64,000 nt of DNA, taken from Candidatus Moraniibacteriota bacterium. GTDB taxonomy: Bacteria; Patescibacteriota; Minisyncoccia; Moranbacterales; UBA1568. The translations under genes were made by a program, and so were the position numbers. The DNA lies in the NCBI GenBank assembly GCA_016699425.1, contig CP064975.1:590098-654097 (forward strand), read 5' to 3'. The notes beneath the pieces are model-generated. The model worked only from the letters and a program-made list of their open reading frames with translations, did no database searches and was not told the origin of the DNA. Below are positions 2,696 to 64,000 of the stretch, piece after piece; the first letter of the stretch is position 1, and each line of letters opens with the position of its first letter.

Positions 2696-2808
2696 AACAA
2701 AAATATTGATTCGCCCCCATTATACCATGGCGCAAAAGACAGAAAAGCCGCCCTACAGGCGACCTATCCGAGATCTGATTGAGTAAGGCTCTGGGACAAT
2801 GTAGGAGC

Positions 2809-3099
2809 TTATTTTTTGTAATAGCTTTCCATCCACCATTTTTTTAGTAAAGGGAGAGATTGAGTGGAAAGAAAATAGCCGATCACTGGGATAAGAGCAT
2901 TTCGTAGAGGGTTTTCATTGCCGATGACTATGAACGCTCCATATGCGATCACATATGTCACCAGCATAATACTTGCAATCCTACATAGGCTCGTTTCCCA
3001 CGCCTTTTCAGCTTCTACACGAGCATTTCTTTTTTCGATTATTTCTAAGCGTTCGTCAATATTCATACAGTTGCGTGCCGAATCTTGGGACAAAGCCAA
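2809..3099 (-). CDS. small hypothetical membrane protein
   Basis: 96-aa ORF with one hydrophobic helix in an AT-rich segment; no recognisable family. Confidence 0.3.
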   Translation of the reverse strand: MALSQDSARNCMNIDERLEIIEKRNARVEAEKAWETSLCRIASIMLVTYVIAYGAFIVIGNENPLRNALIPVIGYFLSTQSLPLLKKWWMESYYKK

Positions 3100-3116
3100 A
3101 ACGCCTTATTAGAAAA

Positions 3117-3749: not shown

Positions 3750-3785
3750 AGTATATAATTCACTGGCTAAACTTATGGTACGAGA

Positions 3786-4406
3786 CTAGGGCTTACATTG
3801 AGCATCCGTGTCAATGGTAATACCGGAAAGGTAGTCTGCAAACGAGGCGCAATCGCTATAAACGAAGCCTTTTATACCGAGTGCAATCGCGGCGTCTACA
3901 TTGGGTTCACTGTCATCAATAAACAACGATTCTTCTGGTTTCGACTTCGCAAGATCAAGGGCGTGTAAATATATTTCTGAATCAGGCTTGACCATCCCCA
4001 CCGCCGAAGAGATTATTACCTCTGTAAAAAGACTTTTAAATTCAGGGTACTGGGTATAGACTTTTCTTTCAAAGAAAGCGTTGTTAGCGTTAGAGAGAAG
4101 AATAGTCTTGGAACCATCCCGCTTTAACTTTTTGATTATTTCTACGAGGTCCTTATCTATTGTGAGGTAGCTGTCAATTTCTCGGCGAAGTTGTGCTTTG
4201 TCTGAAATTATATTTGGGTACTGTAAGAAGTAATCAAGCATATCATCTTCAGATAAAAAACCGAGATCAAACTGCTTGAAAGTCTCTTGTAAATTCTCAT
4301 CTATAAAATCGTACTTTGTGCTGTGCTCTCTGTACCAAGTATTGAGTACGGGACTGCATACGACACCGAAGCAGTCGAAAATAAAAGTCGTGATGCGTGT
4401 AGACAT
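3786..4406 (-). CDS. HAD-superfamily hydrolase
   Basis: FIFDCFGVV (DxxG-type motif I) near the N-terminus and DD motif near the C-terminus; paralog of the upstream HAD gene. Confidence 0.65.
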   Translation of the reverse strand: MSTRITTFIFDCFGVVCSPVLNTWYREHSTKYDFIDENLQETFKQFDLGFLSEDDMLDYFLQYPNIISDKAQLRREIDSYLTIDKDLVEIIKKLKRDGSKTILLSNANNAFFERKVYTQYPEFKSLFTEVIISSAVGMVKPDSEIYLHALDLAKSKPEESLFIDDSEPNVDAAIALGIKGFVYSDCASFADYLSGITIDTDAQCKP

Positions 4407-46027: not shown

Positions 46028-46030
46028 TCT

Positions 46031-47215
46031 TTGTCTATGGAGCCACCCCTTACGCCCATTCCCACACGTCTCCAACCGCTCTATACGAAGCTCCGTATCA
46101 CACTCGCGATTGGTCTCGCACTGGCTGGTCTCGCGCTTGTCTATACTTTTCTGTTCCCGACGGTGACGACTGGCTTTGACTTCCGCAATCCGAAATCGAG
46201 CCGGAATCAGATCTTCGAGCCGCGCGCTGAATCGGGCACACCGCGAACGAATGGCAAACTCGAAGCGCTCGGCCGCCTCGTCGCCAACACGAGCCCGCTC
46301 GGAAATTTTTCGCACCTCACGGTCAGTATCGATCTCGAGAAGCAATCCGAAACCCCGAGCCAAATCGCAGTCAGCATTCGGAAGGGGTATCGCGCCTTCC
46401 TCTATCCGACTGGGGCTGAGATCACCGACTTTCCACAATCAACCGTCTACCGCATCCGCGATACATACTATGAGTCACGAAGTGGTGTACTGTATCCCTT
46501 TGTCAGTGAAGCGGCGTATCTCTCACGTTACCCGGCCAGTCATACCACACTTGAAGCGGACGATTTTGGCTGCATCGGAATAGCAAACTGCGATGGTAGA
46601 GTAGATGTTTCCGATCAATTCATTGGGTTCCGCGTCGGCACGCTCCTCTCGTTCGCCGATGGTGTCTACGTGGTCACGAGCGAATCCGAGATCCGCCCTA
46701 TCGGCAGCGCCGAGATCTTCCTGGCGCTCGGCTACCGTTTCGAGGACGTCTTGCCAGCCAATGAAGAAGATCTGGGGATATACAAACGCGGTCGCATTCT
46801 CCTTATGGGCGCCCCGCACCCAGACGGCACCCTCTTCGTGGACCAAGACACCAGCACACTCTTTCTCATTGAGGGCGAGATGCGCCATCCAGTCAAACCG
46901 GGCGCGTACCATGATTTCCTCTTCGCCAACTCGCATCCGATAACCGCGAGCGAGTCCGGAAGTCGTCGGAGTGCTCAATGCACAGCCACATCCGGATTGC
47001 TCCCGCGTGCGCTCGATTGTGTCACTGAGCTTGGAACTCTTGACGGCGTCATCGGGTCAGACTATGAAGTGACGCTCTCGGACAATGACGTAGCGATCGA
47101 CATCGCGAACCTGACCCTCGCCTTCGAGACTCGCCTCAGTTCCGACAACCTGACGACGCTCCTCGCCAAAGTGAAACAGCGCATCCTCGCCCGCTTTGGT
47201 CTCGCCACACCGTAA
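46031..47215 (+). CDS. membrane-anchored hypothetical protein
   Basis: 394 aa, N-terminal TM helix; no recognisable family. Confidence 0.45.
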   Translation: MSMEPPLTPIPTRLQPLYTKLRITLAIGLALAGLALVYTFLFPTVTTGFDFRNPKSSRNQIFEPRAESGTPRTNGKLEALGRLVANTSPLGNFSHLTVSIDLEKQSETPSQIAVSIRKGYRAFLYPTGAEITDFPQSTVYRIRDTYYESRSGVLYPFVSEAAYLSRYPASHTTLEADDFGCIGIANCDGRVDVSDQFIGFRVGTLLSFADGVYVVTSESEIRPIGSAEIFLALGYRFEDVLPANEEDLGIYKRGRILLMGAPHPDGTLFVDQDTSTLFLIEGEMRHPVKPGAYHDFLFANSHPITASESGSRRSAQCTATSGLLPRALDCVTELGTLDGVIGSDYEVTLSDNDVAIDIANLTLAFETRLSSDNLTTLLAKVKQRILARFGLATP

Positions 47216-49826: not shown

Positions 49827-50273
49827 ATGAGAAACACTATGCCCGAAAAATCCCGCCCCTGTAAACTCGGTATGGTCTTCGGTGTCTTTGATGGACTCCA
49901 TCCCGGACATCAGAATTTCCTTCTCGAAGCGGCTCAATCCTGCGAGAAGCTCGTTGTGGTAGTCGCTCGGACAAGTATCGTCCGGAAGCTCAAGGGACAT
50001 GCTCCCCGGCACGGTACCCGCGTCCGGATGAATGCCATTCGAAGTTTCCTGGATCATGCCCACATCGTCCCGAGCGATCGAACTATCGGAAAGTGGCGCG
50101 TCCTCCGAGACCACTCACCAGACATAGTCTTCCTTGGCTATGACCAGGAGCGGATGGCCGAAAGCCTCACTCAAATCAAACAGCCCTTCCAATTCCTCAG
50201 TCCCCATCAACCGAAGAGATTCAAGTCCAGTCTGCTACACACGTCCGAGGAAAAGAAGAGGATCTCCCGATAG
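49827..50273 (+). CDS. FMN adenylyltransferase-like cytidylyltransferase-fold protein (stand-alone RibF N-domain)
   Basis: GVFDGLHPGHQ (HxGH nucleotidyltransferase motif); 148 aa; faces the rib operon convergently. Confidence 0.65.
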   Translation: MRNTMPEKSRPCKLGMVFGVFDGLHPGHQNFLLEAAQSCEKLVVVVARTSIVRKLKGHAPRHGTRVRMNAIRSFLDHAHIVPSDRTIGKWRVLRDHSPDIVFLGYDQERMAESLTQIKQPFQFLSPHQPKRFKSSLLHTSEEKKRISR

Positions 50274-50275
50274 AG

Positions 50276-50737
50276 CTAGAGGAGTGCTGCTTCAAGCGCG
50301 GCCGCCGTCGCTTCCCGACCCTTGTTATTCCCCTGTGTTGATCGGGCGATGGCTTGTTCGAGTGTGTTGACCGTCAACACGCCGAGCGTAATCGGGATCT
50401 CATACTTGATCGTCAGGTCAATGAGCCCTTGGGCCACTGCCTGAGCGATGATCTGGTCATGGTTGGTCTCACCCTTCACAACACAACCAAGCGTGACAAT
50501 TGCATCCGGCCGATGCTGCTTCATCAGTGAGACACAACCATAAGGGATTTCGAAGCTTCCCGAAACCTGCATCACAAAGATATTCTTCTTCTCCACCCTC
50601 CACTCTCCGAGCTCCGCCAATGCACCCCGAAGGAGTTTCTTGGCGATTGCCTCATAGTAAGGCGAGACAACAATTCCGACTCTGAGCCGCGAGGCATCCC
50701 TCCTGTTGGTGCGACTGACACTGCGTTTCCTTTGCAT
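50276..50737 (-). CDS. ribH: 6,7-dimethyl-8-ribityllumazine synthase
   Basis: …RVGIVVSPYYEAIAKKLLRGA…VMQVSGSFEIPYG… lumazine synthase core. Confidence 0.85.
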   Translation of the reverse strand: MQRKRSVSRTNRRDASRLRVGIVVSPYYEAIAKKLLRGALAELGEWRVEKKNIFVMQVSGSFEIPYGCVSLMKQHRPDAIVTLGCVVKGETNHDQIIAQAVAQGLIDLTIKYEIPITLGVLTVNTLEQAIARSTQGNNKGREATAAALEAALL

Positions 50738-50749
50738 AGGATTGATTCG

Positions 50750-51343
50750 TCAATGATTACTCTTTCCGAGGGCGTTCACCACATAGCGGGCCAAGAGATC
50801 CACCTCGAGATTCACCACACTCCCCTCTTCCAATAATTGCAGGTTCGAATGCCGCAGTGTATATGGAATGAGCGCCACTGTAAACGTCCGCTCCGTTTTA
50901 CGCGCCACAGTGAGGCTGACACCATTGACGGTAATCGCACCGTGTGGAGCGATATACGGTTTCAATGCCGGCGGAATGTTCACGGTCACTTCATGTTTCC
51001 CATGGACTTTCACAATTGATACGACCTCACTCGAACTATCGACATGCCCCTGAATGAGATGGCCATCCAAGGGTGATCGCAGCGTCACAGACCGCTCCAG
51101 ATTGAGCTCCGTTCCGCGCTCGACAAACTGCATAGTCGTCTTGGACAATGTTTCCGGCATATACTCGACATTGAAAGCGACCGGGCTCTGGCTCACTACC
51201 GTCGTACAGACTCCATCGATCGAGACGCTCTGCCCTTTCCGAAGTTTCCAATTCCTCGGCTTCCCGATCCGGACGTGACGAGAGCCATCTTTGTCCTGAA
51301 CCGAGAGCACGGGTTTTACTGCTTCGATGATACCGGTAAACAT
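50750..51343 (-). CDS. ribE: riboflavin synthase alpha subunit
   Basis: MFTGIIEAVKPV start and duplicated lumazine-binding half-domains. Confidence 0.9.
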   Translation of the reverse strand: MFTGIIEAVKPVLSVQDKDGSRHVRIGKPRNWKLRKGQSVSIDGVCTTVVSQSPVAFNVEYMPETLSKTTMQFVERGTELNLERSVTLRSPLDGHLIQGHVDSSSEVVSIVKVHGKHEVTVNIPPALKPYIAPHGAITVNGVSLTVARKTERTFTVALIPYTLRHSNLQLLEEGSVVNLEVDLLARYVVNALGKSNH

Positions 51344-51356
51344 AAAAAATAGGTCT

Positions 51357-51716
51357 CTAGATCTGAAAATAATCCTTCACTTTCTGCACAACCTGAGTAA
51401 TGAATTCTCGGGCATCAGTTTCCGATGTGAATTCAGCTGCTTCCGCGACTTTCGCCAGGAGGGTGATGCGAATTTCTTCGCCATAGAGATCGCCTGAAAA
51501 CCCAAAGAGATGAGCCTCGAGAAGCTGCCTCCCCTGATTCGCATATACCGCAGCGCGATATTCTCTCTCTCCGACCCATACCAGACCTGCATAGGTACCG
51601 GAAATATTCGGCTGATCGAAGTGAATATTGGCTGTCGGGAAGCCGATCGGTTTCCCGAGTTCCATGCCTTTCTCCACCACCCCGCTCTGCTCGTACACAA
51701 ATTCCTTCATCATCAC
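51357..51716 (-). CDS. riboflavin kinase (stand-alone RibF C-domain)
   Basis: GKPIGFPTANIHF flavokinase motif; 119 aa. Confidence 0.8.
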   Translation of the reverse strand: MMMKEFVYEQSGVVEKGMELGKPIGFPTANIHFDQPNISGTYAGLVWVGEREYRAAVYANQGRQLLEAHLFGFSGDLYGEEIRITLLAKVAEAAEFTSETDAREFITQVVQKVKDYFQI

Positions 51717-51767
51717 ATCATCATTAGGATTCCAGTTTCAATCACTATTCTTTCACGTTTTCTTCTC

Positions 51768-51796
51768 ATTGACAAGTATAGATATTGATGCTAGAA
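51768..51796 (+). promoter_or_regulatory. sigma70-like promoter for 51871-52367
   Basis: TTGACA, 17-nt spacer, TAGAAT; about 70 nt upstream of a GGAGGTG RBS and ATG. Confidence 0.5.
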
Positions 51797-51870
51797 TGTG
51801 CAATCAACTGGGGAGCATTCCTCTTTTGATGCATTCCTTGTCAATTGTAGTCCACAGCACAGGAGGTGCA

Positions 51871-52367
51871 CCATGACAACTGCGTTTCTCATCTCTCACG
51901 GCAAGCGGTATGAGGGGTTTAACCCGCTTCACACAAAAGACGGGCGCGAACAATTAGCCCGCCTCACCATCCCATCCGGTGTGACCAGGGTCGTCGCCGG
52001 AAGTGGCCGACGCTTCCAGGAAATCGCCGACGCTATCCGCCGCAAGTTGCCCATAGCGTCAGATGTGCCCTTTGAAACTTCCCCTTTCTGCGGCTCATGC
52101 GACGGCATCCGCTTCGGTAAGAATCCGGGCGAAGGCGACATGATCGTCTTGTCGGAGGGAGAAGTGCCGGTCGAGAAATATCTCGGCCTCGTCGGGACCC
52201 CGGGCTTCGATCCGTGGGCGTTCGTCAACGGACTGGGCAATGGCGCGTTGCTCTGCGGCGGCGGAGAACTACTACTTGCCCTCGGCTACAGTGGAGTCCC
52301 TCCGAAAGGGGCCCTGTTCGGCCTCGACGCCTTAACCAAGGAGATCACCCTGCTCCAACAGGGCTGA
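51871..52367 (+). CDS. SixA-sized histidine-phosphatase-fold protein with variant SHG catalytic motif
   Basis: MTTAFLISHGKRYEGF…DGREQLARLT parallels the RHG…LTxxG signature of PGAM/SixA-type phosphatases but with Ser in place of Arg; 165 aa; RBS caggaggtgcaccATG. Confidence 0.5.
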
Positions 52368-52441: not shown

Positions 52442-53848
52442 TTATTCTCCGAGAATCCGCACCACCCCCTCATTGGCATTCACCTCGACCAAGTCGCCAT
52501 CCTTAAGTACCTGCGTCGCAATCTTGGTGCCGATGATACAGGGGATGCCAAGCTCGCGGGAGACGATAGCCGCATGACAGGTTATCCCACCCTCATTGGT
52601 GACTACGGCCCCAGCCCGCTTCATGATCGGTACAAACTCTGGCCGCGTCATGCTCGTCACGAGTATGTCCCCCTCTTGAAAGCCATGATCATCGTGAGGG
52701 TCGGATACAACCCGCACGATTCCTTGCACGCGTCCGCGGCAAGCCGTTTGCCCCTTCAGCTCACTGGAGTCATGGACCTGATGTTTCGTCCAGGCATCAA
52801 ATTGTGCTATGGCATCTGGGAAATCACAGTACTCGACTTCGTACGAATGATCAGGATTCGCGAGATAGAGACATCCCTGATCCCGAGTGCTGATGTCGTC
52901 TTGTTTGCTCTTCAGATATGCAACTCCTTTTGTATATTCAGCGAGCAGAATATAGGGCACAAACCTCGGTTCTATACCGGCTCGCTCGGTCATGAGAGTG
53001 CCGACCTCGAGCATGACGGCGAGCATCTGAGCGATCGGATCCTTCCGGATATCACGTAAACGCATAACGAGCTGTGCATATTCGACGAGACGCCGTGCGT
53101 CTGGCGTGAGCGTCTCTCGCCAGGCCAGATGCGCATTCGCTCGATCTTGTGCCTCCGTATAGAGGCGCTCCGCTTCTTGTGTCTTCTCGGGGAGATGAGA
53201 TCGGACATCGTCCAGTGCCACCGCGATCTCGTCGTCGCTCTTCGACCGGAAGTAATCCGTGAACATGAACTTCGCCTTCCGCACGATGTCGCCCTGGCCA
53301 GCCGCTACGAGCTCGGTCATATTGCAGAGATAGCGCCCCTCAAAAGAGACAAAGGTCGCCTGTGTCGCGCGTTCCCATATCGCGTCGAGTTCACTCCTAT
53401 GCTCGATACCGATGACATCGAGTATCTTGTCGTGGTCGATCGTCTCGATATAGATAGTCGCTAGCAGTTCGGGGTACAGACGATTCATAATGACAAGCAT
53501 ATACTCCTGCAGTTCCGCGTCCGCTAGCTCAGAGAGCGTCTTGTCGGTCACCTCGTCATACAACTGCCGCGCATCCCGCTCGTATACGCGATACTCCTCT
53601 TCGAGTTCTCGGAGCGATATCGTCCCCGCATAGTATTGGCGAAATTTCTCTGTCGCGAGGGAAAAATATCTTTTCTCATTCAGAGCGATGCAGGTATCGC
53701 GCCCCTTCGCGAGAAAAAGGGTGTGTAGCGGATACTCCTGGGTATTCCATGGTACGCACATGAAGAAGGGTGCCATCGTGGCGTGAATGACAAAGACTGG
53801 GTCATCACCGACTATACTCTTAAATTTTTCCAGTATCTCGTAAGTCAT
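52442..53848 (-). CDS. PEP-utilising-enzyme mobile (phosphohistidine swivel) domain protein, paralog 1
   Basis: C-terminal GDILVTSMTRPEFVPIMKRAGAVVTNEGGITCHAAIVSRELGIPCIIGTKIATQVLKDGDLVEV, i.e. PpsA/PPDK-type swivel His (CHAAI). The ~380-aa N-terminal region belongs to no recognised family. Confidence 0.8.
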   Translation of the reverse strand: MTYEILEKFKSIVGDDPVFVIHATMAPFFMCVPWNTQEYPLHTLFLAKGRDTCIALNEKRYFSLATEKFRQYYAGTISLRELEEEYRVYERDARQLYDEVTDKTLSELADAELQEYMLVIMNRLYPELLATIYIETIDHDKILDVIGIEHRSELDAIWERATQATFVSFEGRYLCNMTELVAAGQGDIVRKAKFMFTDYFRSKSDDEIAVALDDVRSHLPEKTQEAERLYTEAQDRANAHLAWRETLTPDARRLVEYAQLVMRLRDIRKDPIAQMLAVMLEVGTLMTERAGIEPRFVPYILLAEYTKGVAYLKSKQDDISTRDQGCLYLANPDHSYEVEYCDFPDAIAQFDAWTKHQVHDSSELKGQTACRGRVQGIVRVVSDPHDDHGFQEGDILVTSMTRPEFVPIMKRAGAVVTNEGGITCHAAIVSRELGIPCIIGTKIATQVLKDGDLVEVNANEGVVRILGE

Positions 53849-53889
53849 ATTCCATACTACGTCCTAGAATGAGCATCAGGTATCGCTCA

Positions 53890-54849
53890 CTATTCCTGCT
53901 GATTGGCAGTGGTTACGAGTGTTTCGAATGCCTTCCGGTCATCGATAATTTTCGCCAATACCTCTCGACCAAATTGGACCGACTCCTTCCGATCACCTTG
54001 CTCGGCATCCTTGATCGTGTATGTCAGCACGATGGTCTGATCCATTCCGGTATTTACGATCTCGATACGCACACCCTCAGCCTCCAAAAAACCCGAACCG
54101 ATAGACTGTACGAACTTATCCTTGGCCTCCACACCTTTGACGGTCTCAAGTACTTTGGCAGTGAAGCACTCCGCGATACCCATATGTGTCCCTAGGTATC
54201 GCTCAAGTTGATTTCCGGTTTCCTCATATTTCCCCTCTGTATCCCTAGCAACGATCCGCTGGAAATTATTTCCCACCGTCGCATAGCGGGCGACGATCTC
54301 GGCTACGTTCCCGGCCATTCGGGTATACGTCGAGGATTTTTCATCTCCCTTTTCAATCGCGTCTCGATCACTGTCATTCATCGCCCATGGCAGGTAGCGC
54401 TTTTCCATATATGCCTTCACACCATCAGGACCGATCGGACCCTCATCAGTGAAACCCAAGCGATCATCCACGAGCATCTTTTTCCCATAGTGAACCTGCT
54501 CCGCGACCTTCGCTTCGATCACCTCAAGCGAATCATCTGGAGAAATATCCTCGTTGGCGAGCATCACCCGGTACGCCGTCTCCTGGGTCCGTACGCGCGA
54601 ACTCCCCATGCCCATGGCAACTTCCGGCTGAGGGTCGACTGTCTTCCCATGCTCGGTGACTTGTGCGCGGCCCTCTGGAGTCAGGCGCAGATTCGGATTT
54701 GCCTCCTCTTCCACTGTCTTCCCTCTCTCTCGCTTTCCATGGCGCATGAGTTCCAGGATCACCCTCGTGATTTGTTTTGGCTCTTGTTCTTTACTTTCTG
54801 GTCCCCGCTCGGGGCCACCCTCCATTGACTTGAAACTTCCCCCTTCCAT
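53890..54849 (-). CDS. histidine phosphatase superfamily protein (PGAM-like, branch 1)
   Basis: …ILELMRHGKRERG…LRLTPEGRAQVTEHGK… (RHGxR…LTxxG…H). Confidence 0.7.
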   Translation of the reverse strand: MEGGSFKSMEGGPERGPESKEQEPKQITRVILELMRHGKRERGKTVEEEANPNLRLTPEGRAQVTEHGKTVDPQPEVAMGMGSSRVRTQETAYRVMLANEDISPDDSLEVIEAKVAEQVHYGKKMLVDDRLGFTDEGPIGPDGVKAYMEKRYLPWAMNDSDRDAIEKGDEKSSTYTRMAGNVAEIVARYATVGNNFQRIVARDTEGKYEETGNQLERYLGTHMGIAECFTAKVLETVKGVEAKDKFVQSIGSGFLEAEGVRIEIVNTGMDQTIVLTYTIKDAEQGDRKESVQFGREVLAKIIDDRKAFETLVTTANQQE

Positions 54850-55058
54850 ACTTGTTTTCTTAAAAGTTTATAGTCTAGCGTATGACTCCTCTATTTTGAC
54901 ACAGAGCGTGTATTCTTGGAATTTGTCGACATCGGGATGTGCCGACGATTGACAGGACTATCGAATTGTGCTATCTTATCTTGTCAGAGCGACTCAAGTG
55001 TTGCTTTGATGAAACACCTTGACAACCCGATCAACGATCAAACCCAGGAGGTTACACC

Positions 55059-55754
55059 ATGATCGAACCCGTTTATACTGAACATCCTCTGCGTGGCATT
55101 TCGATGGCTCGAATGTCGGCACTCAGAGACAGGCTGCGGCCCGATGTGGAGTTCCACATCTACCGGCACGGCAATGCCGCCCCGCAAGCGAGTACGGCTG
55201 ATGGCACCGATTTCCAGCGTCAGCTGACGGAAAAGGGCCGGTCACAGGTCCGCAGGCTCGGTCAGAAGATCGTCGGGATTCCCTATGACCTGGTGATCTC
55301 GTCGCCGGCACCCCGCGCCATCCATACGGCACTGATCGCCACCGTTGAAAGCCGGATCGATTCCAATCCGATGTTCCACATCGGCACGGGGGTGCAGTTC
55401 TACTCGCCGACGACCCCGGGGCATTTCGCCGAGCTCCTCCGAATCGGCGCTGGACTACAATACAACAACTACGGCGAGTATCTCCGGGCCGACACGATGT
55501 CGATCTGGCCAACCTTCCGAGCCGAGATGCTCGGTAACCTACTCGGGATCCTCGGGATCGCAGCCGCCCGGCAGATTTTCGTGAGCAATCACGGAGTAAT
55601 CGGAAGCTGCCTCGCCGAGGCACTACTCCAGGTCCTCGCCGGCGAGATAGACGAACAGAGTCGGGAGGTGCTCTACAACACATCGGCGGCTGAGTGTAGC
55701 TGCTTCCAAGTGTCGAGAGCCGGCGTGCAATACATCGACTACCTGGCCACCTGA
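55059..55754 (+). CDS. histidine phosphatase family protein (SixA/PGAM-like)
   Basis: VEFHIYRHGNAAPQ…QRQLTEKGRSQVRRLGQKI…ISSPAPRAIHTA matches the canonical RHG/LTxKG/…SP..R…T signature. Confidence 0.75.
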   Translation: MIEPVYTEHPLRGISMARMSALRDRLRPDVEFHIYRHGNAAPQASTADGTDFQRQLTEKGRSQVRRLGQKIVGIPYDLVISSPAPRAIHTALIATVESRIDSNPMFHIGTGVQFYSPTTPGHFAELLRIGAGLQYNNYGEYLRADTMSIWPTFRAEMLGNLLGILGIAAARQIFVSNHGVIGSCLAEALLQVLAGEIDEQSREVLYNTSAAECSCFQVSRAGVQYIDYLAT

Positions 55755-55771
55755 TCACCCACCAACCGCAA

Positions 55772-55824
55772 CGCCCCGGAAGGGACGCCGCTCAATGAGC
55801 GCTGTCTCTCCGGGGCTTTTTTTT
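55772..55824 (+). terminator. intrinsic terminator
   Basis: gccccgga…tccggggc stem followed by T9. Confidence 0.5.
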
Positions 55825-55832
55825 TGAAGGGA

Positions 55833-57302
55833 TTATCCTGCCCGCTCGAGCACTCGCACCACCCCGTTGTCCGCGTCCACTTCGACCAGATCACCGTCGT
55901 GAAGTACTTGTGTTGCAATTTTCGTACCGATGATGCAGGGTTTTCGGAGCTCACGGGCGACGATGGCCGCGTGACAGGTGATGCCGCCTTCATCCGTGAT
56001 AATGGCAGTTGCTCGTTTCATAAGTGGAACAAACTCCGGACGAGTCATCCCGGTGACGAGGATATCGCCATCTCTGAAGTGGTCGAATTTGCTGGCATCC
56101 AATACTATACATGCCTTTCCCTGGATTTTCCCTGGTGATCCGATCTGCCCCCGTAGCGTATCTCCATTTTTTCCACCGGTAACCGATTGAACGTAAAACT
56201 CAGTGAGCTGCTGTTTGGCGATATCATACTCAATCGGCTCAAGCGTGATCGTTCCATCAAACTCGATGAGCAGAACAGCTCCATTCTTTCGCGCTTCAAT
56301 TTCAGTGGCATGCAGCTTCAGATACTCAACTCCGAGCAACATCTCATCGAACTGAATAGAGGTTATCAACGCATGATCCATCCGGGCTTCAGTCAGCACC
56401 TTTTCATAAATAAGCCACCAAATAACCAATGCCTTGGCAAAAAGATTCTTTCTCCGATCGCGGTATTCAATAATTCTCTGTATATACCAAACCAAAGCCT
56501 GCTCATCTTTTGAAAGCGTCTTGGTCCAATCATCAAGACGAGTCCTCGCTTCTTCTAATACATTATCCAGCGCCATCAATTTCAAACGAGCCTGATCTGG
56601 TGTGAAGGCGCCATATTCACTATCGATTTTCTCAGCCGTTTTTTCCAATGTTTCCACACCGAAATAGTTAGAGAAAATAAATCGGGCATTCTCTATTCTG
56701 TATTCATAAGGTCTGCCTTCGGCTATCGTCTTCAAAACAGATCGCTGCTGCGCTTTTTCGAACGACTCGACTGCTGGATGTGTCGCCCTCTCCCAGATTT
56801 CATCAAGTCGTTCTTGAAAGATCAAGGAATCGACCTCCTTCAGTACATCGAAACAAATCTCTTTATCGAAATACACCGTGAAAAATATGAAACCATTCAG
56901 GCCCCAGACTTCATCCCGAATAGCATCCATGACAGGGAGTAGTTCGCTTGTCGGAATTTCTAAGACTTTCTTACTGGTATACTCTTCGTAGAGTGAAGAT
57001 ATATGAGCCTCTATCTCATCAAATGTACGAAAACGATTTTCAGCCTCATTCGAGCCACTGAGGTACGATCTGAAAATATAACGAGAGCAATATTCGAGGG
57101 TATCGGCGGGAAGCATCTGCAGAGAATCCCCTTCTTTGGCAATCAGAATGAGATGCAGCGGCGGAAGGCCGGGATAGTAATCTCCAAAATATTTTGCCGT
57201 ATTAAATGCAGAACCTTGTCCAAAAAAAGTATAATTATGAAGCGGTGGCCACAGCTTCCGCCCATTCATCAAACCACTGAATTTTTGTAGCGCATTATTC
57301 AT
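55833..57302 (-). CDS. PEP-utilising-enzyme mobile domain protein, paralog 2
   Basis: C-terminal GDILVTGMTRPEFVPLMKRATAIITDEGGITCHAAIVARELRKPCIIGTKIATQVLHDGDLVEVDADNGVV. Confidence 0.8.
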   Translation of the reverse strand: MNNALQKFSGLMNGRKLWPPLHNYTFFGQGSAFNTAKYFGDYYPGLPPLHLILIAKEGDSLQMLPADTLEYCSRYIFRSYLSGSNEAENRFRTFDEIEAHISSLYEEYTSKKVLEIPTSELLPVMDAIRDEVWGLNGFIFFTVYFDKEICFDVLKEVDSLIFQERLDEIWERATHPAVESFEKAQQRSVLKTIAEGRPYEYRIENARFIFSNYFGVETLEKTAEKIDSEYGAFTPDQARLKLMALDNVLEEARTRLDDWTKTLSKDEQALVWYIQRIIEYRDRRKNLFAKALVIWWLIYEKVLTEARMDHALITSIQFDEMLLGVEYLKLHATEIEARKNGAVLLIEFDGTITLEPIEYDIAKQQLTEFYVQSVTGGKNGDTLRGQIGSPGKIQGKACIVLDASKFDHFRDGDILVTGMTRPEFVPLMKRATAIITDEGGITCHAAIVARELRKPCIIGTKIATQVLHDGDLVEVDADNGVVRVLERAG

Positions 57303-57303
57303 A

Positions 57304-59484
57304 CTATTTTATAATCCTCACCGCCCCATTATCTGTCACAGCACCAGAACTTCGTTCGGGGCTGGACTCCGCTTTGTTTTCACCGTCACCGAAAGCCACT
57401 CCGCTTTTCGCACTGGACGCTCTTTCAAGGATCATCACCACCCCATGATCCGCATCCACCTCGACGAGGTCGCCATCGTGGAGGACCTGCGTCGCGATCT
57501 TGGTCCCGATGATGCAGGGTTTCTTCATCTCCCGTGCGACGATGGCCGCGTGACACATGATACCGCCCTCATCAGTAATTATAGCGCCACACTTATGTAT
57601 TAGCGGCAAAAGAGAGGGATTTGAATTTATAGAAACCAAGATATCTCCCATGTTAAATTCTTTCTTCTCGTCGATTGAATACACGATACGCGCAATCCCC
57701 TTCACATTCCCCTGAAATACGGTCTGCCCTCGTACCCCATCGTGATCATCGACATGTTCGAGTGTTGCTATTACCGCAGCTGGATCTGAAACAAATGAAA
57801 CATTTTCGGCACCATCGAGAACCTGATAAACAAAGAATTTTCTTCTGTGAGATAGACTCATACGTTGGCTTGCGACCTCAGCGGCACCAGAGAGTAGTTC
57901 TTGCAAGGTCATGTAAGGAAGAACCGAGGGGTCAAGCCCACGCGCATGTAATTCCTCCTCAGCAAGAGGAATAATAACTTGAGAGACAAGATTCGGGTAT
58001 AAAGATACTGAACGAATATCTTCTGCCAATGTGAGGAGTTGTGTATCTTGATACGTTATATCTTCTGAGAAAGCGATAACCCAATATGGAAGAATGGTGG
58101 CTCGGAGAGAAAGACAAATCAGAAAATCCATCGCACTTGCAATGTCCACGAACTTCATTTCTCCTGAGAGATACTTTTTCGCCTCTTGATTTAAGAGTAC
58201 CCCCTCCTCAAGAAATACTATTACTTGTTGTTCATTCTGTTCGCATAACGTTTTGACATACCGCTTGTGGTCTTCTAACTCATCGTACTTTCTGTAGTTT
58301 CTCGCAACGCCAGTTACCTGTTCTATAAATAGGGCGTTCTTCATTTGTGAACCCAGAACCTTGAGAGTCTCTGGCGAGTTATACCACTCCTGCCAAAGCG
58401 ATGCGCCAAATAGCGTAAATGGACGCGTGAGGTAATGTGTCCAATGAGTATCTTTGTTATAGAGTGCATCTGAAACTCGCTCAATCACCCGCACCACCCC
58501 CCGATCTGCATCGACTTCGACCAGATCGCCATCGTGCAAGACCTGCGTCGCGATCTTGGTCCCGATGATACAGGGTTTCTTCATTTCCCGCGCGACGATG
58601 GCGGCGTGACAGGTGATGCCACCTTCATCGGTGACGAAGGCAATCGCTCTTTTCATAATAGGGAGAAAAGTCGGTATCGTCATCGGACTGACCAGCACCT
58701 CACCATCCCGGAAAGACTTCATATCCTCGTTTTTTATCACCCGCCGCACCCGACCCCTCACCACTCCGAAGCAGGCGACCTGTCCGGGAAATTCGCTCAT
58801 ATCTGATACGTCAACGCTTTCTTCGAGTCGAAAATCAAATTTCACCTGCAATTCATCAAACTCCGACGACGACGTCAACATATCATCCACCAATATAAGT
58901 TTCTCTTTTTTTCGTAAGGCAAGTGACGATAGTGAGGGAATATTTCCGGATGACACCTCCTCTAACATAAGGAAATCGGACTGCGATCCAAAATCTGGAT
59001 ATCGAGTTCTCAGTATCGTACGAACATGATTGAAAGCCTGATACTCAAATTGGTCTATCCCCTTCCGGAACCGAAAGGCGAGATCTCTGTCCTCTTCGCT
59101 GAATCGTTTATCCGAAGGGATATGGAGCGCTACGTATAATGAGTCCCAAGCCTCCAGAAGAAAATCTATGAATGTCATGAATTCCTTCTGACTCAGATCC
59201 GTACGCATACACAGGTTCCTCAAATCTTGAATTTTTTCTTGCGCCTGAAGAAAAAGACTTTCCACATACGCTGGGTTCTCGATGATTTTTTTCAGGAGGA
59301 TAGCATTGATTTCGCCATTCAATGCCGGGTGACGATACGCATCCCATACACCATTCCGAAAGATGCAGATGTTTCGAGGAAAAATATCAATTTTCGTGCC
59401 GAAAAAAGAGCGATACCGCTTCCCCCATATCTGGAGGAGGAGTAAGGGAAAATCCCTCGTATATATTTTCGGGAGGATAATCAT
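57304..59484 (-). CDS. PEP-utilising-enzyme mobile domain protein, paralog 3 (two swivel domains)
   Basis: Internal domain …GEVLVSPMTIPTFLPIMKRAIAFVTDEGGITCHAAIVAREMKKPCIIG… and C-terminal domain …GDILVSINSNPSLLPLIHKCGAIITDEGGIMCHAAIVAREMKKPCIIG…. Confidence 0.8.
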   Translation of the reverse strand: MIILPKIYTRDFPLLLLQIWGKRYRSFFGTKIDIFPRNICIFRNGVWDAYRHPALNGEINAILLKKIIENPAYVESLFLQAQEKIQDLRNLCMRTDLSQKEFMTFIDFLLEAWDSLYVALHIPSDKRFSEEDRDLAFRFRKGIDQFEYQAFNHVRTILRTRYPDFGSQSDFLMLEEVSSGNIPSLSSLALRKKEKLILVDDMLTSSSEFDELQVKFDFRLEESVDVSDMSEFPGQVACFGVVRGRVRRVIKNEDMKSFRDGEVLVSPMTIPTFLPIMKRAIAFVTDEGGITCHAAIVAREMKKPCIIGTKIATQVLHDGDLVEVDADRGVVRVIERVSDALYNKDTHWTHYLTRPFTLFGASLWQEWYNSPETLKVLGSQMKNALFIEQVTGVARNYRKYDELEDHKRYVKTLCEQNEQQVIVFLEEGVLLNQEAKKYLSGEMKFVDIASAMDFLICLSLRATILPYWVIAFSEDITYQDTQLLTLAEDIRSVSLYPNLVSQVIIPLAEEELHARGLDPSVLPYMTLQELLSGAAEVASQRMSLSHRRKFFVYQVLDGAENVSFVSDPAAVIATLEHVDDHDGVRGQTVFQGNVKGIARIVYSIDEKKEFNMGDILVSINSNPSLLPLIHKCGAIITDEGGIMCHAAIVAREMKKPCIIGTKIATQVLHDGDLVEVDADHGVVMILERASSAKSGVAFGDGENKAESSPERSSGAVTDNGAVRIIK

Positions 59485-60551
59485 ACTCTTTGTACTATCC
59501 TCACCACCCCGTGGTCCGCATCCACTTCCACTAGATCACCATCATGAAGGACTTGCGTCGCGACTCCGGTGCCGACAATACATGGGAGATCAAGTTCTCG
59601 GGCAGTTATCGCGGCATGCGAGAGCAACCCACCGACATCAGTCACCACGGCACTTGCTTTCTTGAACGCATCCATGAGATACGGATCAGTCGTGGTTGAA
59701 ACGAGCACATCTCCCTTATTCATTTCGTTTATTGTGCGGCGGGTTTTCTCAGGATCACCATAATCCCGTATGATAATTTTCACCTTGCCTCTCACTTTCC
59801 TCCCAGAATCATGCGCAACTTTTCCAGAAATCTCTGAGGCCTCGTCCTGGCCGTTCTTCGCATAAAACTGCTTTGCAAATTCTATTGCACGTTCGCCGGA
59901 GAAAAATCTATTGTTATCTTCAGAGATTTCAAAAACAAACGTCTGTCGCGCATCAATTTCCGCCTGCGAGACCCGCACACCATCAAACAACTGCCTCAGT
60001 TCCTCAATTCGATAGTACTGCAGCATTGTTTCTGGCATACTCAAACACTCGGATGTCTTCCGAACTAAAGTGCCAAGGTACCCGTCAGCATGGAAAAACG
60101 TCGGGTCGACATCCGCCCGAAGTTTATTTTTGCATTGCTGAACTATCGCTATTTTTTTGGCCGCTTGAGGATCGTCTGCCGCCGCGACAGAGACACGATC
60201 CCACGCGTACGGATCAAAAACAAAGTAGCTGTGACAAAATTTCGCGAGCATCTTTTCCATGTGTCCTGCGTCCTGTTTCGAGAAGTTTCTTTTTGTTGCA
60301 AACGTCGTCAGCTCAGCATTCATCGTCGCGATTGTCTGCTCTGTCTCTCTCACGATTGCCTCCAATTCGTCTGGCTGCAGAGCCATCCCGCGCTCGGCCA
60401 TTGTTTCAAGCGTCTTCGCTGACGTAAAAACTCTTTTACCACCGTTCTGCGAGATAGTTACCGTCCCGACAGGATCGTAATAGATATTAACGATACTTTC
60501 GAAAAACAGCGTTGTTCCTTTTGATTCAAAGGTAAATGTATACTCACTCAT
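59481..60551 (-). CDS. PEP-utilising-enzyme mobile domain protein, paralog 4
   Basis: C-terminal GDVLVSTTTDPYLMDAFKKASAVVTDVGGLLSHAAITARELDLPCIVGTGVATQVLHDGDLVEVDADHGVV. Start set at MSEYTF, which gives an ATGA overlap with paralog 5; the track ORF extends to 60695. Confidence 0.75.
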   Translation of the reverse strand: MSEYTFTFESKGTTLFFESIVNIYYDPVGTVTISQNGGKRVFTSAKTLETMAERGMALQPDELEAIVRETEQTIATMNAELTTFATKRNFSKQDAGHMEKMLAKFCHSYFVFDPYAWDRVSVAAADDPQAAKKIAIVQQCKNKLRADVDPTFFHADGYLGTLVRKTSECLSMPETMLQYYRIEELRQLFDGVRVSQAEIDARQTFVFEISEDNNRFFSGERAIEFAKQFYAKNGQDEASEISGKVAHDSGRKVRGKVKIIIRDYGDPEKTRRTINEMNKGDVLVSTTTDPYLMDAFKKASAVVTDVGGLLSHAAITARELDLPCIVGTGVATQVLHDGDLVEVDADHGVVRIVQRV

Positions 60552-63061
60552 AGTGATGCCCGTTGAATCACCCGCACCACCCCATGATCCGCATCGACCT
60601 CCACCAAGTCGCCATCGTGGAGGACCTGGGTCGCGATCTTGGTGCCGATAATACAGGGCTTTTTCATCTCTCTCGCGATGATTGCGGCGTGACAAGTGAT
60701 ACCCCCCTCGTCGGTAACAAACGCTGCAGCGCGCTGCATTGCTGGAACGTAATCGGGAGTAGTCATCGCAGTAATCAATATCTCACCTGCTTGTATAAGT
60801 AAGATATCGGCCTTTCTATGAAGTATCCGTGCTCTACCCTGAATTTTCCCTCTCGTAGCAGTCTGCCCCTTCAGCGTCCCCGTATCACTCCCCGGACTCA
60901 CACAGTCCTCCGTGATTTCAATATGAGCGCTCTTTAGAAATTGAATCAGAGTTCTGTCTGTATATATTTCCCTATCGTAATAGAGGAAATGCCTCTTTCG
61001 GTTCTTCAGAGCTGTAATAGTAGGAAACATATCATCTCCCCGTACCTCTTCAATTCGAATATATTTTACGAGGTCACCCAGTTCAGGATACAGAACACCC
61101 AAAGTGCGCTGAAACACATGATCTATCTCTTCCAAAAAATCAGAAGCCCGCTCACGCATACTCATCGCGAGCCGCTTATCGTCAACACTTGCCTGATCCA
61201 TTAGCGGAACAACATATGAGATATCCAAGCCACACCAGGCGTCCAAAGCCCGCTCATAGAATTCTAAAAGTTTTTCTCTACTTTGCAGCGGTCGCCCCAC
61301 TTTCCATACGGGCTCAAGATAATCTAGGATCTCCCCATACCAATGCATGGTCTTGGTGATAAAACCAGAATCCCTAAGCGTCTTCTTTATAATATTTGCT
61401 TCATAATCAATAAATGTCAGCTCATGATAATAGACATGAGCGACACCCTCATGAGCATCGAAAAGAATCGGACGATCAGCCCAATTCAATAATTCTGCAA
61501 TTGTTTTCGTCTGATGCTCCTCCCATACCTGAAACGCGAGTAGGCAATTCTCTCGCGTATATACTCTTTCGTACTTAGTCTGGGCATCGACATTATCCAC
61601 AGATAGCATCGTGTCCGATCGGCCTTGACCCTCTTCAACCACACCCCCCACTCGCTCAATCACCCGTACCACCCCCCGATCCGCATCGACCTCCACCAAG
61701 TCGCCGTCATGGAGCACCTGGGTGACGACTCCGGTGCCGACAATACACGGCACTTCCAGTTCCCGAGAGACGATCGCGGCATGTGAGGTAAGTCCGCCGG
61801 AATCCGTGACGATAGCCACTGCTCGGCGCATCGCAAAGATATATTCCGGGCTCGTCATCGGTGCCACGAGTACCTCTCCTGGCAACAGCCTATCCGATTG
61901 GTGGGGATCGAGCAGAATCCTCACCCGACCCGTAGCGAAACCTTTACTAGCAACGATACCGCTTATTTCCCGTTCGTCCCCTGAGGCCTCCTGATTTGAA
62001 TAGAGCTCAAAGTACTTTCTCGACTCGTCCGCATTCAAGAGCGTCCTCGTATTTGTAATATATTCGGCAAAACCTTTCTTCCGTTCTTCGATCTGTTCCG
62101 TGTAATCTATCCCAGTAAACGTCTCTGCGATTTCCTCGAAAGAAAAATTCAAGAGATCATCCTTCCGCCATCCTTTTCGACGAATCACCTCATCCAGCAA
62201 CATATTCTTATAATGCAGGTACCGGAGAATGTTCTCTTTCCGATTATCCTGCCAGAGAACACTCGATCCGATTGCCTTCCCGATAGACATGATTTCTTCT
62301 GGCAAGGAATATTTCCCCCGTACGTCGTCTTTGTTTCGTTGTACCTCGACTATCCTCAGACGTGACTTCTCTCGGAGACCAGGAAGCAGATTCTTCTTCC
62401 GCTCAATAAAAAACGACTGTGGCAAAGCTTCAACCTGAGAATAACTGTTTCCAATCCAATAATACTGCCTCTGGTGTTCCGCGATATCATCCGTTTCGGC
62501 GAGTCGCATCTCCTCTTCCTGATAGAACGAGATTTCCTCTGGCGCAGTGAGAACTTCCATGAGCGTCGGTATCGAGTCGACCGATGCCCCCAAATAACCC
62601 TTCAGTTTATCCTCGAGAAGTCTGTCGGCACCGTAATTACAAAGCTCGGGAATGAGCCCGGGGGTGATGAAACCGATGATTGCTCGGTGGAGCTCATTCC
62701 AACGGGCTATCAGATCCTCATCAGAGAGGCCCCCTACTCCGCTACCGTCGAGACGCCCCTCAATCCGGACGAGCTGGTCAAGCATCTGCTGATAGTCTCC
62801 TCGAATACGCTGCTCTTTTCCATTCAAGAATATATCCATGAAGGCAGCGCTCCCCTGTTTTCGCAAGGCGTCGAATTCATTCACCCACAAGATAGTGTGG
62901 TCGTTATAGAAAGCCAGTGCGGGCGGCCACATGTACTCGGGGTATTTTTTCTCAAATACTCCTCCACCCATCATCAGATTGAAGTCGCTCTGGTAGAAAT
63001 ACCGTAGCGGTGCCGGACCCCACTTGAACAATTCCACATGTGGATCAATGGGTATCTCCAT
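60548..63061 (-). CDS. PEP-utilising-enzyme mobile domain protein, paralog 5 (two swivel domains)
   Basis: Internal domain …GEVLVAPMTSPEYIFAMRRAVAIVTDSGGLTSHAAIVSRELEVPCIVG… and C-terminal domain …GEILITAMTTPDYVPAMQRAAAFVTDEGGITCHAAIIAREMKKPCIIG…. Confidence 0.8.
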   Translation of the reverse strand: MEIPIDPHVELFKWGPAPLRYFYQSDFNLMMGGGVFEKKYPEYMWPPALAFYNDHTILWVNEFDALRKQGSAAFMDIFLNGKEQRIRGDYQQMLDQLVRIEGRLDGSGVGGLSDEDLIARWNELHRAIIGFITPGLIPELCNYGADRLLEDKLKGYLGASVDSIPTLMEVLTAPEEISFYQEEEMRLAETDDIAEHQRQYYWIGNSYSQVEALPQSFFIERKKNLLPGLREKSRLRIVEVQRNKDDVRGKYSLPEEIMSIGKAIGSSVLWQDNRKENILRYLHYKNMLLDEVIRRKGWRKDDLLNFSFEEIAETFTGIDYTEQIEERKKGFAEYITNTRTLLNADESRKYFELYSNQEASGDEREISGIVASKGFATGRVRILLDPHQSDRLLPGEVLVAPMTSPEYIFAMRRAVAIVTDSGGLTSHAAIVSRELEVPCIVGTGVVTQVLHDGDLVEVDADRGVVRVIERVGGVVEEGQGRSDTMLSVDNVDAQTKYERVYTRENCLLAFQVWEEHQTKTIAELLNWADRPILFDAHEGVAHVYYHELTFIDYEANIIKKTLRDSGFITKTMHWYGEILDYLEPVWKVGRPLQSREKLLEFYERALDAWCGLDISYVVPLMDQASVDDKRLAMSMRERASDFLEEIDHVFQRTLGVLYPELGDLVKYIRIEEVRGDDMFPTITALKNRKRHFLYYDREIYTDRTLIQFLKSAHIEITEDCVSPGSDTGTLKGQTATRGKIQGRARILHRKADILLIQAGEILITAMTTPDYVPAMQRAAAFVTDEGGITCHAAIIAREMKKPCIIGTKIATQVLHDGDLVEVDADHGVVRVIQRASL

Positions 63062-63064
63062 ACC

Positions 63065-64000
63065 TTAATCTTGTTGACTCCAATCTTCTTTTCTTTTCCG
63101 AGAAAATACTTCGAGATCTTGTAGCATCTCTTCCAAACTCTTTTTCATAGCAACGACTTGATCACGATACTTCACCACGATCTGTTCCTCATGAAATTCT
63201 ATCTCTGTTGATTCCAAGAAATTTCTGAAGGTGCTCCCAAATTCCTCAAAGCTTTTCAGATTCAGCTCCTTGCCCATAAGAGCCATGGTAGCAAAGTCGC
63301 TGTAAAAATCATGCGTTATATTCACCACTTTCGTAAGCTGATGAGGAAAGTAGCGCTCAGCAAGGTCATGCATTCTTTTTATGGAAAGAATATAATTCCT
63401 GGCGAAATCTTCCGGCGTCAGGACAAAATCCCCCGAATAGAGAACTTCGGTATCAATACCCGGAACCTTCTTAGTGATCTCATCTTTCATCTGTTGCTGT
63501 TCCTCACTTGATGCCAACCAGAATTTTCCAGTCAGCTCTTCATCTCCATCGAACATCTGGAGATACTTTTTGAAAGCCGGGAGAGCAAGGTTGGTTTCTG
63601 TATAGCCCAAAAGAGTCTGCGGCGTAGCATCGGTAATAACAAACTTGTTATCAAAATTTCCTTTCGCCTGCTCGAGCGAATCACGAGAACGCTCTGCATC
63701 TGAGAGGGATATAAATCGAACATGTTCATTGCCCTGGTAATGTTCTTTCAGCTCCCGCTCGAAAATATCCCTCGTTAGAACATTGCGTGGAACAATCGAA
63801 GGAACGATGATCATCACTGACCCCATCGGCATCGCTTCAAGCTCCGAAATAAGCTCTTTCGCTTTCAATTTTGCCGCTTCCCTACCTTCTTCGGTAGGCT
63901 GAAAATCCTTGTCTCTTGGCAAGTGGCGCATCAAGGCAACTTTACGCTTTGCCTCTGCTGATTCTTCATTAGAAGGATTACCCTCCACTGGTGGCGTAAA
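63065..64000 (-). CDS. histidine-phosphatase-like protein with variant RHL motif; may continue past the window end
   Basis: …KVALMRHLPRDKDFQPTEEGREAAKLKAKEL… aligns with the RHGKR…LTPEGR segment of 53890-54849. The ORF is still open at 64000 (GTG at 63986-63988 is only a possible start). Its 3' end lies 3 nt upstream of paralog 5. Confidence 0.5.
   Translation of the reverse strand, partial: FTPPVEGNPSNEESAEAKRKVALMRHLPRDKDFQPTEEGREAAKLKAKELISELEAMPMGSVMIIVPSIVPRNVLTRDIFERELKEHYQGNEHVRFISLSDAERSRDSLEQAKGNFDNKFVITDATPQTLLGYTETNLALPAFKKYLQMFDGDEELTGKFWLASSEEQQQMKDEITKKVPGIDTEVLYSGDFVLTPEDFARNYILSIKRMHDLAERYFPHQLTKVVNITHDFYSDFATMALMGKELNLKSFEEFGSTFRNFLESTEIEFHEEQIVVKYRDQVVAMKKSLEEMLQDLEVFSRKRKEDWSQQD

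Follow-up and report, generated by a model that had tools for sequence, protein, structure and literature searches.

Among the closest described counterparts of the genes analysed here are the two-component dikinases HpeHI, PpsAB (phenylphosphate synthase) and CreHI. In HpeHI, the HpeI protein is the ATP-grasp component and HpeH combines a rifampin (RIF)-binding domain with a swivel domain; the complex of the two is only transient, and HpeH alone can transfer phosphate between substrates (PMC12167813). The characterised dikinases of this type that we found have one ATP site per acceptor site. Here we describe a locus with a different layout in the genome of Candidatus Moraniibacteriota bacterium (GenBank assembly GCA_016699425.1, contig CP064975.1), a member of the Patescibacteria, also called the candidate phyla radiation (CPR). 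It lies on the minus strand at 52.4-64 kb of the stretch of DNA that was analysed (64,000 nucleotides, positions 590,098 to 654,097 of the contig; hereafter the window), where five genes carry seven swivel domains. An earlier note on this DNA had drawn attention to these paralogs by the likeness of their 3' ends, which it took as a sign of gene conversion or recent cassette shuffling.

We propose, with a probability of roughly 60%, that the region is part of a multi-module array of acceptor components of two-component dikinases of the RPH/HpeH/PpsA type, charged in trans by a separate ATP-grasp protein. Full-text literature searches, of partial coverage, returned no description of such multi-module arrays or multi-swivel fusions in CPR; they yielded papers on two-component dikinases and a survey of the CPR resistome that merely counts rph-like genes.

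Domain architecture of the acceptor modules

Pfam searches identified seven PEP-utilizers swivel phosphohistidine domains (PF00391) in genes A to E, with scores of 81.6-173 bits against a gathering cutoff of 23.1. Genes A (52442-53848, 468 aa) and B (IPJ68_03260, 55833-57302, 489 aa) consist of one module each, in which a B-type N-domain is followed by the swivel (52454-52741 in A, 55851-56138 in B). Gene C (57304-59484, 726 aa) encodes two modules with a shorter, "S-type" N-domain (swivels C1, 58486-58773, and C2, 57430-57717) and ends in a 38-aa tail, while gene D (59481-60551, 356 aa) joins a separate short type of N-domain to one swivel (59496-59783). Gene E (60548-63061, 837 aa) again holds two modules, E1 with a long N-domain (swivel 61661-61948) and E2 with an S-type one (swivel 60569-60856). 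Apart from PF00391, no dikinase domain was found by Pfam in genes A-E, neither PPDK_N (PF01326) nor PEP-utilizers_C (PF02896). The catalytic His of the GGxx[CS]HAA loop is retained in 7/7 swivels; the Thr ahead of it in the loop is replaced in C2 (GGIMCH) and D (GGLLSH).

The AlphaFold2 model of gene B (pLDDT 93.2) was compared with the PDB using Foldseek. The top matches were six structures of the rifampin phosphotransferase (RPH) RPH-Lm (including 5FBU, 5FBT and 5HV1), with E values of 8.5e-12 to 2.5e-10 over ~575 alignment columns; all other matches were confined to the swivel. The B-family profile aligns to RPH residues 684-866, and the NCBIfam models for RPH, PigC and RedH align past the swivel in the window proteins, at scores far below their cutoffs (NF041857, 57.9-132 bits vs a cutoff of 999; NF000283, at most 93 vs 1700). 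Positions 672-863 of the NCBIfam RPH model thereby align to residues 278-467 of E. NCBIfam models of phosphoenolpyruvate synthase (PEPS) match the swivel alone, also far under their cutoffs.

In B, a motif R281-D282-x-R284-K285 precedes the catalytic His444, and its R281, D282 and K285 are invariant among 50 homologs. A carries R-D-I-R-K at residues 265-269 and E1 carries Q-D-N-R-K at residues 271-275, which correspond by the NCBIfam offset to about RPH 665-669. Motif and catalytic His are 163 residues apart in B, 160 in A and 156 in E1, compared to 159 in RPH (R666-E667-x-x-K670 to His825). R666 and E667 of RPH-Lm are indispensable for its second phosphotransfer, and K670 takes part in the same hydrogen-bond network (PMC4844700). 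Judged from the spacing and the profile offsets, the R-D-x-x-K of A and B appears to be the equivalent of R666, E667 and K670. A also matches the B-family profile over its full length (E 4e-145). Together, these findings identify A and B as RIF-binding-domain-like plus swivel proteins that lack an ATP-grasp domain.

The N-terminal domains of the other modules are more distant. The B-family profile aligns with E1 only from its position 264 and with D only from position 306 onward, and hhalign related the S-type to the B-type N-domains with a probability of 96.6%, only over the last ~80 residues. The earlier note had called the regions upstream of the similar ends highly divergent, and rightly so: the N-domains of the paralogs are at most 28% identical and their similarity is often undetectable in pairwise comparison. 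Within the system as a whole, the substrate domains of acceptor modules are only about 25-40% identical; the N-domain of A shares 42% identity with its ortholog in the related locus L001. A search with the B N-domain retrieved only 147 representative clusters among 1.84 billion, and the family is therefore small and fast-evolving.

Among characterised proteins, RPH (5FBS/5FBT/5FBU/5HV1) is the best structural match of B and, like PigC and RedH (PRK06241 models), has a C-terminal swivel and an R-[DE]-x-x-K motif ~160 residues before the His. It differs in that the ATP-grasp domain, which the window proteins lack, is on the same polypeptide; identity is about 14%, and the RPH-family NCBIfam scores of the window proteins are about 64-132 bits against cutoffs of 999-1700. 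Nothing points to rifamycin as the substrate of the window proteins. With HpeHI, PpsAB and CreHI, A and B share the presence of a RIF-binding-like substrate domain and a C-terminal swivel on one polypeptide, and the GGxT[CS]HAA motif is common to all; outside the swivel, sequence similarity is remote. Those systems have one acceptor per ATP-grasp and serve aromatic catabolism. In contrast, the window contains at least seven acceptor modules and some relatives at least ten, with two to four modules per protein in places, an S-type class, interleaved phosphatases and a reduced CPR host.

The swivel is also homologous to that of PEPS and pyruvate phosphate dikinase (PPDK). The best sequence matches in the PDB are PEPS swivels (E 2e-26), and the ATP-grasp domain of the relatives described below is PF01326, as in these enzymes. 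However, PEPS and PPDK have a C-terminal PEP/pyruvate-binding TIM barrel (PF02896) and a central swivel, whereas the window genes lack PF02896 and have the swivel at the C-terminus. The PEPS/PPDK annotation is therefore misleading. Enzyme I of the phosphotransferase system (PTS) and other multi-domain phosphoryl-transfer proteins use the same swivel fold to shuttle His-phosphate between two sites, but the array has neither an HPr- nor a PEP-binding domain and lacks PTS components, and the likeness is limited to the swivel.

ATP-grasp partners and arrays in related genomes

Close homologs of B link the modules to an ATP-grasp domain. Those nearest to B, at 68-73% identity, include proteins of 750-815 aa with PF01326 fused in front, and some close homologs show the three-domain order typical of RPH. 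PF01326 was present in the fused homologs P0003, P0004, P0006 and P0243. With the fused ATP-grasp part as query, we retrieved thousands of stand-alone ATP-grasp proteins of ~315 aa from Patescibacteria that were 71-86% identical to it. An alignment of 31 stand-alone ATP-grasps from Patescibacteria (A3), with named sources including Paceibacterota, Campbellbacteria and Moranbacteria, had a mean column identity of 80%.

In several Patescibacteria relatives, a separate ATP-grasp gene (encoding ~315-350 aa) adjoins the swivel genes, as in HpeHI, PpsAB and CreHI. On a JGI contig, a PPDK_N gene is followed by seven PEP-utilizers genes, and in locus L003 by six. In L006 the ATP-grasp gene lies among at least nine swivel genes, and in L012, L029 and L030 stand-alone ATP-grasp genes are located ahead of three to six swivel domains. 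Fusions that put loader and acceptors on a single chain are frequent as well: Pfam confirmed PPDK_N plus four swivels in a protein of 1,763 aa (L059, 9968-15259) and PPDK_N plus three swivels in one of 1,752 aa (L054, 9998-15256), and P0243 (1,339 aa) combines ATP-grasp with two modules and is 67% identical to the B N-domain. Further fusions of ATP-grasp with several modules were seen in L012 (11150-14740) and in P0281 and P0282. P0349 carries its ATP-grasp C-terminally.

Of the metagenomic loci, 29 extend at least 8 kb downstream of an ATP-grasp gene; in these, the number of downstream swivels was zero in 1 locus, one in 15, two in 5, three in 3, four in 3, five in 1 and six in 1. Large arrays are lineage-specific expansions, and the array of the window is among the largest.

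Proposed phosphate transfer and possible role of the phosphatase-type genes

By analogy with RPH and HpeHI, a separate, conserved ATP-grasp protein of ~315 aa would present ATP to each module in turn. The swivel His of the module would attack the β-phosphate of ATP, the γ-phosphate would be hydrolysed, and the swivel would then go back to its own N-domain and hand the phosphate to a bound, module-specific substrate, probably a small molecule. The histidine-phosphatase-type proteins interspersed with the modules may act on the phosphorylated products or reset the phosphohistidine. The C-half of the swivel, which comprises the His loop and the subsequent strands, would be conserved since every module docks on the same ATP-grasp. 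As many modules would share one loader, we propose that loader and swivel C-half were held constant while the substrate domains diverged. Such common docking plausibly lies behind the strong conservation of the C-half.

Taken to its full extent, this would amount to a hub-and-spoke organisation: one highly conserved ATP-grasp loader charges many swivel acceptor modules, separate or two to four per polypeptide, each with its own substrate domain; the uniform swivel C-termini form the docking surface, and dedicated histidine-, HAD- and low-molecular-weight (LMW)-type phosphatases accompany them. We put this forward tentatively, at somewhat less than even odds.

Several observations weigh against the interpretation as an array of dikinase acceptors. 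A tblastn search detected no PPDK_N (ATP-grasp) domain encoded in the 64-kb window, which ends inside gene F, the first gene visible. No substrate can be named. Large arrays are a minority state and one swivel per ATP-grasp is the commonest arrangement, given that 15 of the 29 loci have just one downstream swivel. The proposed equivalence with the RPH motif derives from spacing and profile offsets rather than from structural superposition, and in E1 a Gln takes the place of the motif Arg. In C1, C2, D and E2, the match to the B-type domain is limited to its last 40-80 residues; in the alignment, these short modules lack the Asp and Lys of R-D-x-x-K (the S-type ones keep the Arg) and therefore may not be conventional phosphotransferases. 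Finally, the large array of L006 contains a 563-aa protein (2410-4101) in which helix-turn-helix (HTH) domains (HTH_3/19/26) are fused to a PEP-utilizers swivel. This suggests a DNA-binding protein under the control of, or feeding, the phosphotransfer system, and hints that some modules may be regulatory.

Two genes near the modules, and probably a third, encode phosphatase-type proteins. HP231 (55059-55754, plus strand) and HP319 (53890-54849, minus strand, upstream of A and on the same strand) both score above the gathering cutoff of PF00300 (21.7), with 38.1 bits (E 1.6e-9) and 23.8 bits (E 4.1e-5), respectively, and have an N-terminal RHG-type motif, which places them in histidine phosphatase branch 1, HP319 as a divergent member. 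HP231 additionally matches the phosphohistidine phosphatase SixA weakly (TIGR00249, E 8.7e-8, under the cutoff). Gene F (IPJ68_03285) had no Pfam match. A homolog search retrieved one relative besides F itself, with 40% identity and on a 6.5-kb contig, and the AlphaFold2 model (pLDDT 75.6) was built on an alignment of these two sequences. In Foldseek it resembled MINPP, PGAM, Sts-2 and acid phosphatases, all of them histidine phosphatases, and the matches were weak (E 1e-5 to 1e-2, TM about 0.33). The motifs RHLPRD and VNITHD of F are conserved in the homolog. F is thus a probable divergent member of the histidine phosphatase superfamily, as judged from the model and the motifs. Related arrays are likewise interleaved with genes for ~260-320-aa proteins (some with His_Phos_1), a HAD hydrolase and an LMW phosphatase (LMWPc), and HP319-like proteins of ~290-320 aa recur within them.

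The phosphatases also bear on a different function, in which the modules would be phospho-carriers or regulators in a histidine phosphorelay that SixA-like phosphatases reset, with N-domains that bind protein or DNA. The SixA match of HP231, the interleaving of phosphatase genes with modules in several genomes, the HTH-swivel fusion of L006 and the short modules without a full R-D-x-x-K would all fit such a relay. However, the SixA match is under the curated cutoff, and the N-domains of A and B have the RPH substrate-domain fold (B by its model) with an invariant motif of catalytic type. Moreover, small molecules are phosphorylated by each of the characterised relatives (RPH, HpeHI, PpsAB and CreHI). 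We therefore regard a relay as unlikely and favour small-molecule acceptor modules.

Conservation of the swivel C-halves

The seven swivel domains were aligned by codon without gaps (96 codons), and the last 46 codons (138 nt) were treated as the C-half. All seven C-halves are on the minus strand (52454-52591, 55851-55988, 57430-57567, 58486-58623, 59496-59633, 60569-60706 and 61661-61798); the earlier note had located six of the similar 3' ends and overlooked the copy in D at 59496-59633. Similarity climbs toward the end of the swivel. From the first 40 to the last 46 swivel codons, mean pairwise nucleotide identity rises from 0.34-0.52 to 0.72-0.79 and mean third-position identity from about 0.3 to 0.4-0.66. 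The contrast along the gene that the note had described is thus real.

The 3' ends are not almost identical at the DNA level, as had been claimed; it is the protein that is nearly so. Pairwise DNA identity over the last 46 codons is 65-87% and pairwise third-position identity 0.28-0.67, while at the protein level the seven copies are 81% identical across the C-half and 86% identical across their last 26 residues. Nonsynonymous divergence (dN, Nei-Gojobori, NG86) has a median of 0.16 over these codons. Synonymous divergence (dS) is 0.62 for C1-C2, the lowest of all pairs, 0.83 for E1-E2 and 0.87 for C2-E2, and 0.9-2.4 or saturated for the others, which gives dN/dS ratios of roughly 0.03-0.15.

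The C-half is conserved far beyond this genome. B and 49 homologs share the consensus GGITCHAAIVSRELKKPCIIGTKIATxVLKDGDLVEVDADKGIV, with most residues invariant or conserved to 90% or more. As the C-half is near-invariant across the family, its conservation is a family property kept by purifying selection, and from the sequence comparisons we read this selection as the main cause of the similar 3' ends. Codon choice is in line with this. In the majority of 14 arrays of other genomes, the sharing of the same codon at identical residues of the last 26 codons is near the prediction from upstream codon usage in the same genes, and in the N-half of the swivels in the window it equals expectation.

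Some of the data could instead be explained by gene conversion, or by a C-terminal cassette that was recently shuffled onto variable N-modules, as the main cause of the similarity. Among 68 modules from 14 loci, identity over the last 26 swivel residues is 0.691 within a locus vs 0.631 between loci (permutation p < 0.0005), whereas the first 50 residues show no such effect (0.404 vs 0.402, p 0.39). The genome of the window is the extreme case: its last 26 residues are 0.86 identical among its own modules against 0.65 to the others (0.65-0.70 in the comparison with other genomes), above any of the 13 other arrays, while the N-half again lacks the effect. At the 46 positions of the C-half, B differs from its ortholog L2_9707 (66% identical) at 6, from C1 at 3 and from E2 at 4. 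The nearest neighbour of a C-half is in the same genome in 50% of cases vs 17% expected. The two modules of gene E (E1-E2) and those of gene C (C1-C2) share short tracts; a Sawyer-type run test flagged E1-E2 (p 0.0005 for the whole domain, 0.0035 for the C-half only) and also C1-C2 and D-E1.

At the codon level these signals become weaker. When run tests were restricted to third positions, none reached significance once the 21 compared pairs were corrected for. Same-codon sharing in the C-halves is 0.52 vs 0.35 expected, but a region-specific control for codon bias lowers the excess from +0.17 to +0.11, similar to other genomes. The codons of B match those of 5/6 other copies at about chance, despite the common protein motif. 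The 9-mer GGGGTGGTG is identical in 6/7 swivel copies, with E1 deviating by one base, and, like the relic-like junction in the tail of gene C described below, can be counted for conversion. However, close relatives have the same QVLHDGDLVEVDAD motif, and any homogenisation must therefore be older than their split. We also considered whether GGGGTGGTG serves as a Shine-Dalgarno sequence and rejected this, since 25-35 nt separate it from the next start and since internal modules have it too, as does A, downstream of which there is no gene.

Base composition is ambiguous in the same way. The GC content at third codon positions (GC3) is 0.66-0.73 in the swivel C-halves vs 0.48-0.52 upstream, a jump that would speak for conversion. 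As proof of GC-biased conversion it is not decisive, since the operon is AT-richer than its flanks and codon selection at catalytic residues is possible. In the relatives L002 and L005, the GC3 spike lies chiefly around the His loop. The stretch of genes F-E-D-C-B (55833-63988) as a whole has a GC content of 0.44-0.49 and a GC3 of 0.45-0.53, compared to a GC3 of 0.58-0.73 in gene A, the two phosphatase genes (52442-55754) and the housekeeping genes of the window, and its GC3 spikes of 0.7-0.8 coincide exactly with the swivel C-halves. The operon may be of foreign origin, a GC-rich copy may have been the donor in conversion, or codons at conserved sites may be under selection.

With dS at or above 0.62 in all pairs, DNA identity of only 65-87% and a segment that is nearly invariant family-wide, conversion or recent shuffling is an improbable main cause. 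What survives of the proposal is a weaker form: a minor part of the similarity may stem from old conversion of short tracts or from co-evolution of the modules with a partner they share, and neither would be recent. Still less credible, and in our view close to negligible, is that the repeats reflect an assembly artefact (collapsed or mis-joined) or decayed PEPS/PPDK fragments, as their clustering and the database name "phosphoenolpyruvate synthase/pyruvate phosphate dikinase" of their relatives might suggest, given that repeats of about 140 nt and 65-87% identity are too diverged to collapse, all swivel genes are intact open reading frames (ORFs) with the conserved catalytic His, comparable arrays occur in many independent assemblies, and the proteins have no PEP/pyruvate-binding domain and carry the swivel C-terminally like RPH, not centrally like PEPS and PPDK.

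Gene arrangement and proposed operon structure

On the minus strand, the genes follow each other in the order F, E, D, C and B, and A lies beyond two intervening genes, HP231 and HP319. The junctions given in the earlier note were confirmed exactly: E and D overlap by ATGA at 60548-60551, D and C by ATGA at 59481-59484, and C and B are separated by 1 nt. The gap between F and E is 3 nt. This geometry is consistent with F-E-D-C-B forming one translationally coupled operon. The proposed extent, a single transcript from the gene at 63065 to 55833, fits these overlaps and short gaps and the hairpin after B at its downstream end; at its upstream end it probably falls short. Gene F is the first visible operon gene (63065-64000, minus strand), with an ORF at 63065-63988 that is identical to the NCBI protein P0241. 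In the NCBI record F has 316 aa and its annotated start is beyond base 64000, and the operon therefore probably continues upstream past the end of the window.

A GC-rich hairpin lies at 55773-55816, between the convergent genes B and HP231; its minus strand contains an A-run and its plus strand a T-run. Together with a terminator-like match on the plus strand at 55804-55816, inside the hairpin region, these features suggest that it is probably a bidirectional terminator that closes the operon. In a consensus scan for promoters and terminators, counts were not above those of shuffled sequence.

Some gene boundaries differ between sources. In the ORF list, D begins with a TTG at 60695, which lies 144 nt before the ATG at 60551. 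The 48 additional residues would be Gly/Arg-rich and read, in a different frame, from the 3' end of E that encodes its swivel; we consider the ATG within the ATGA overlap more likely to be the start. For B, the NCBI record lists a protein of 427 aa from an internal Met (P0001). Homologs align from the upstream ATG at 57302, 1 nt past the stop of C, which gives the 489 aa used here. The locus tags from 03260 (B) to 03285 (F) include one step of five more than genes C, D, E and F need, and the NCBI record therefore probably carries an extra or split feature between B and F.

Gene C has a further peculiarity. Its 38-aa tail follows the second swivel, and the last ~30 nt, ...GATAATGGGGCGGTGAGGATTATAAAATAGTATG (about 57300-57330, into the start codon of B), are identical at 24/29 nt to the junction between the end of the swivel and the next start in D. 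The segment at 57300-57345 thus resembles a duplicated junction or what remains of a lost module.

Beyond the array, the adjoining region at 49827-52367 holds a riboflavin/FAD group comprising an FAD-synthetase-like nucleotidyltransferase, lumazine synthase, riboflavin synthase and flavokinase. Beside this group is an ORF of 189 aa (51798-52367, plus strand) that has SHG where histidine phosphatases have RHG and no Pfam or NCBIfam match; we list it as a putative gene and, at most, a candidate phosphatase. Two adjoining plus-strand ORFs of 579 aa and 394 aa at 44288-47215 had no Pfam match at E <= 0.001.

Discussion

The similar 3' ends are in themselves mostly ordinary domain conservation. The locus around them is of wider interest. 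A genome of about 1.2 Mb devotes roughly 12 kb to seven acceptor modules and three or four phosphatase-type genes, and current labels such as "PEP synthase/PPDK" or "hypothetical" mislead metabolic reconstructions of CPR bacteria. If one ATP site indeed serves many acceptor sites, this would be a new organisation of dikinase chemistry. The acceptor array, if our interpretation is correct, would represent an unrecognised and possibly central part of CPR metabolism, regulation or resistance. Should the hub-and-spoke organisation also hold, a symbiont with a minimal genome would possess a multi-substrate platform driven by the conversion of ATP to AMP, with which it could trap or activate scavenged metabolites or detoxify compounds.

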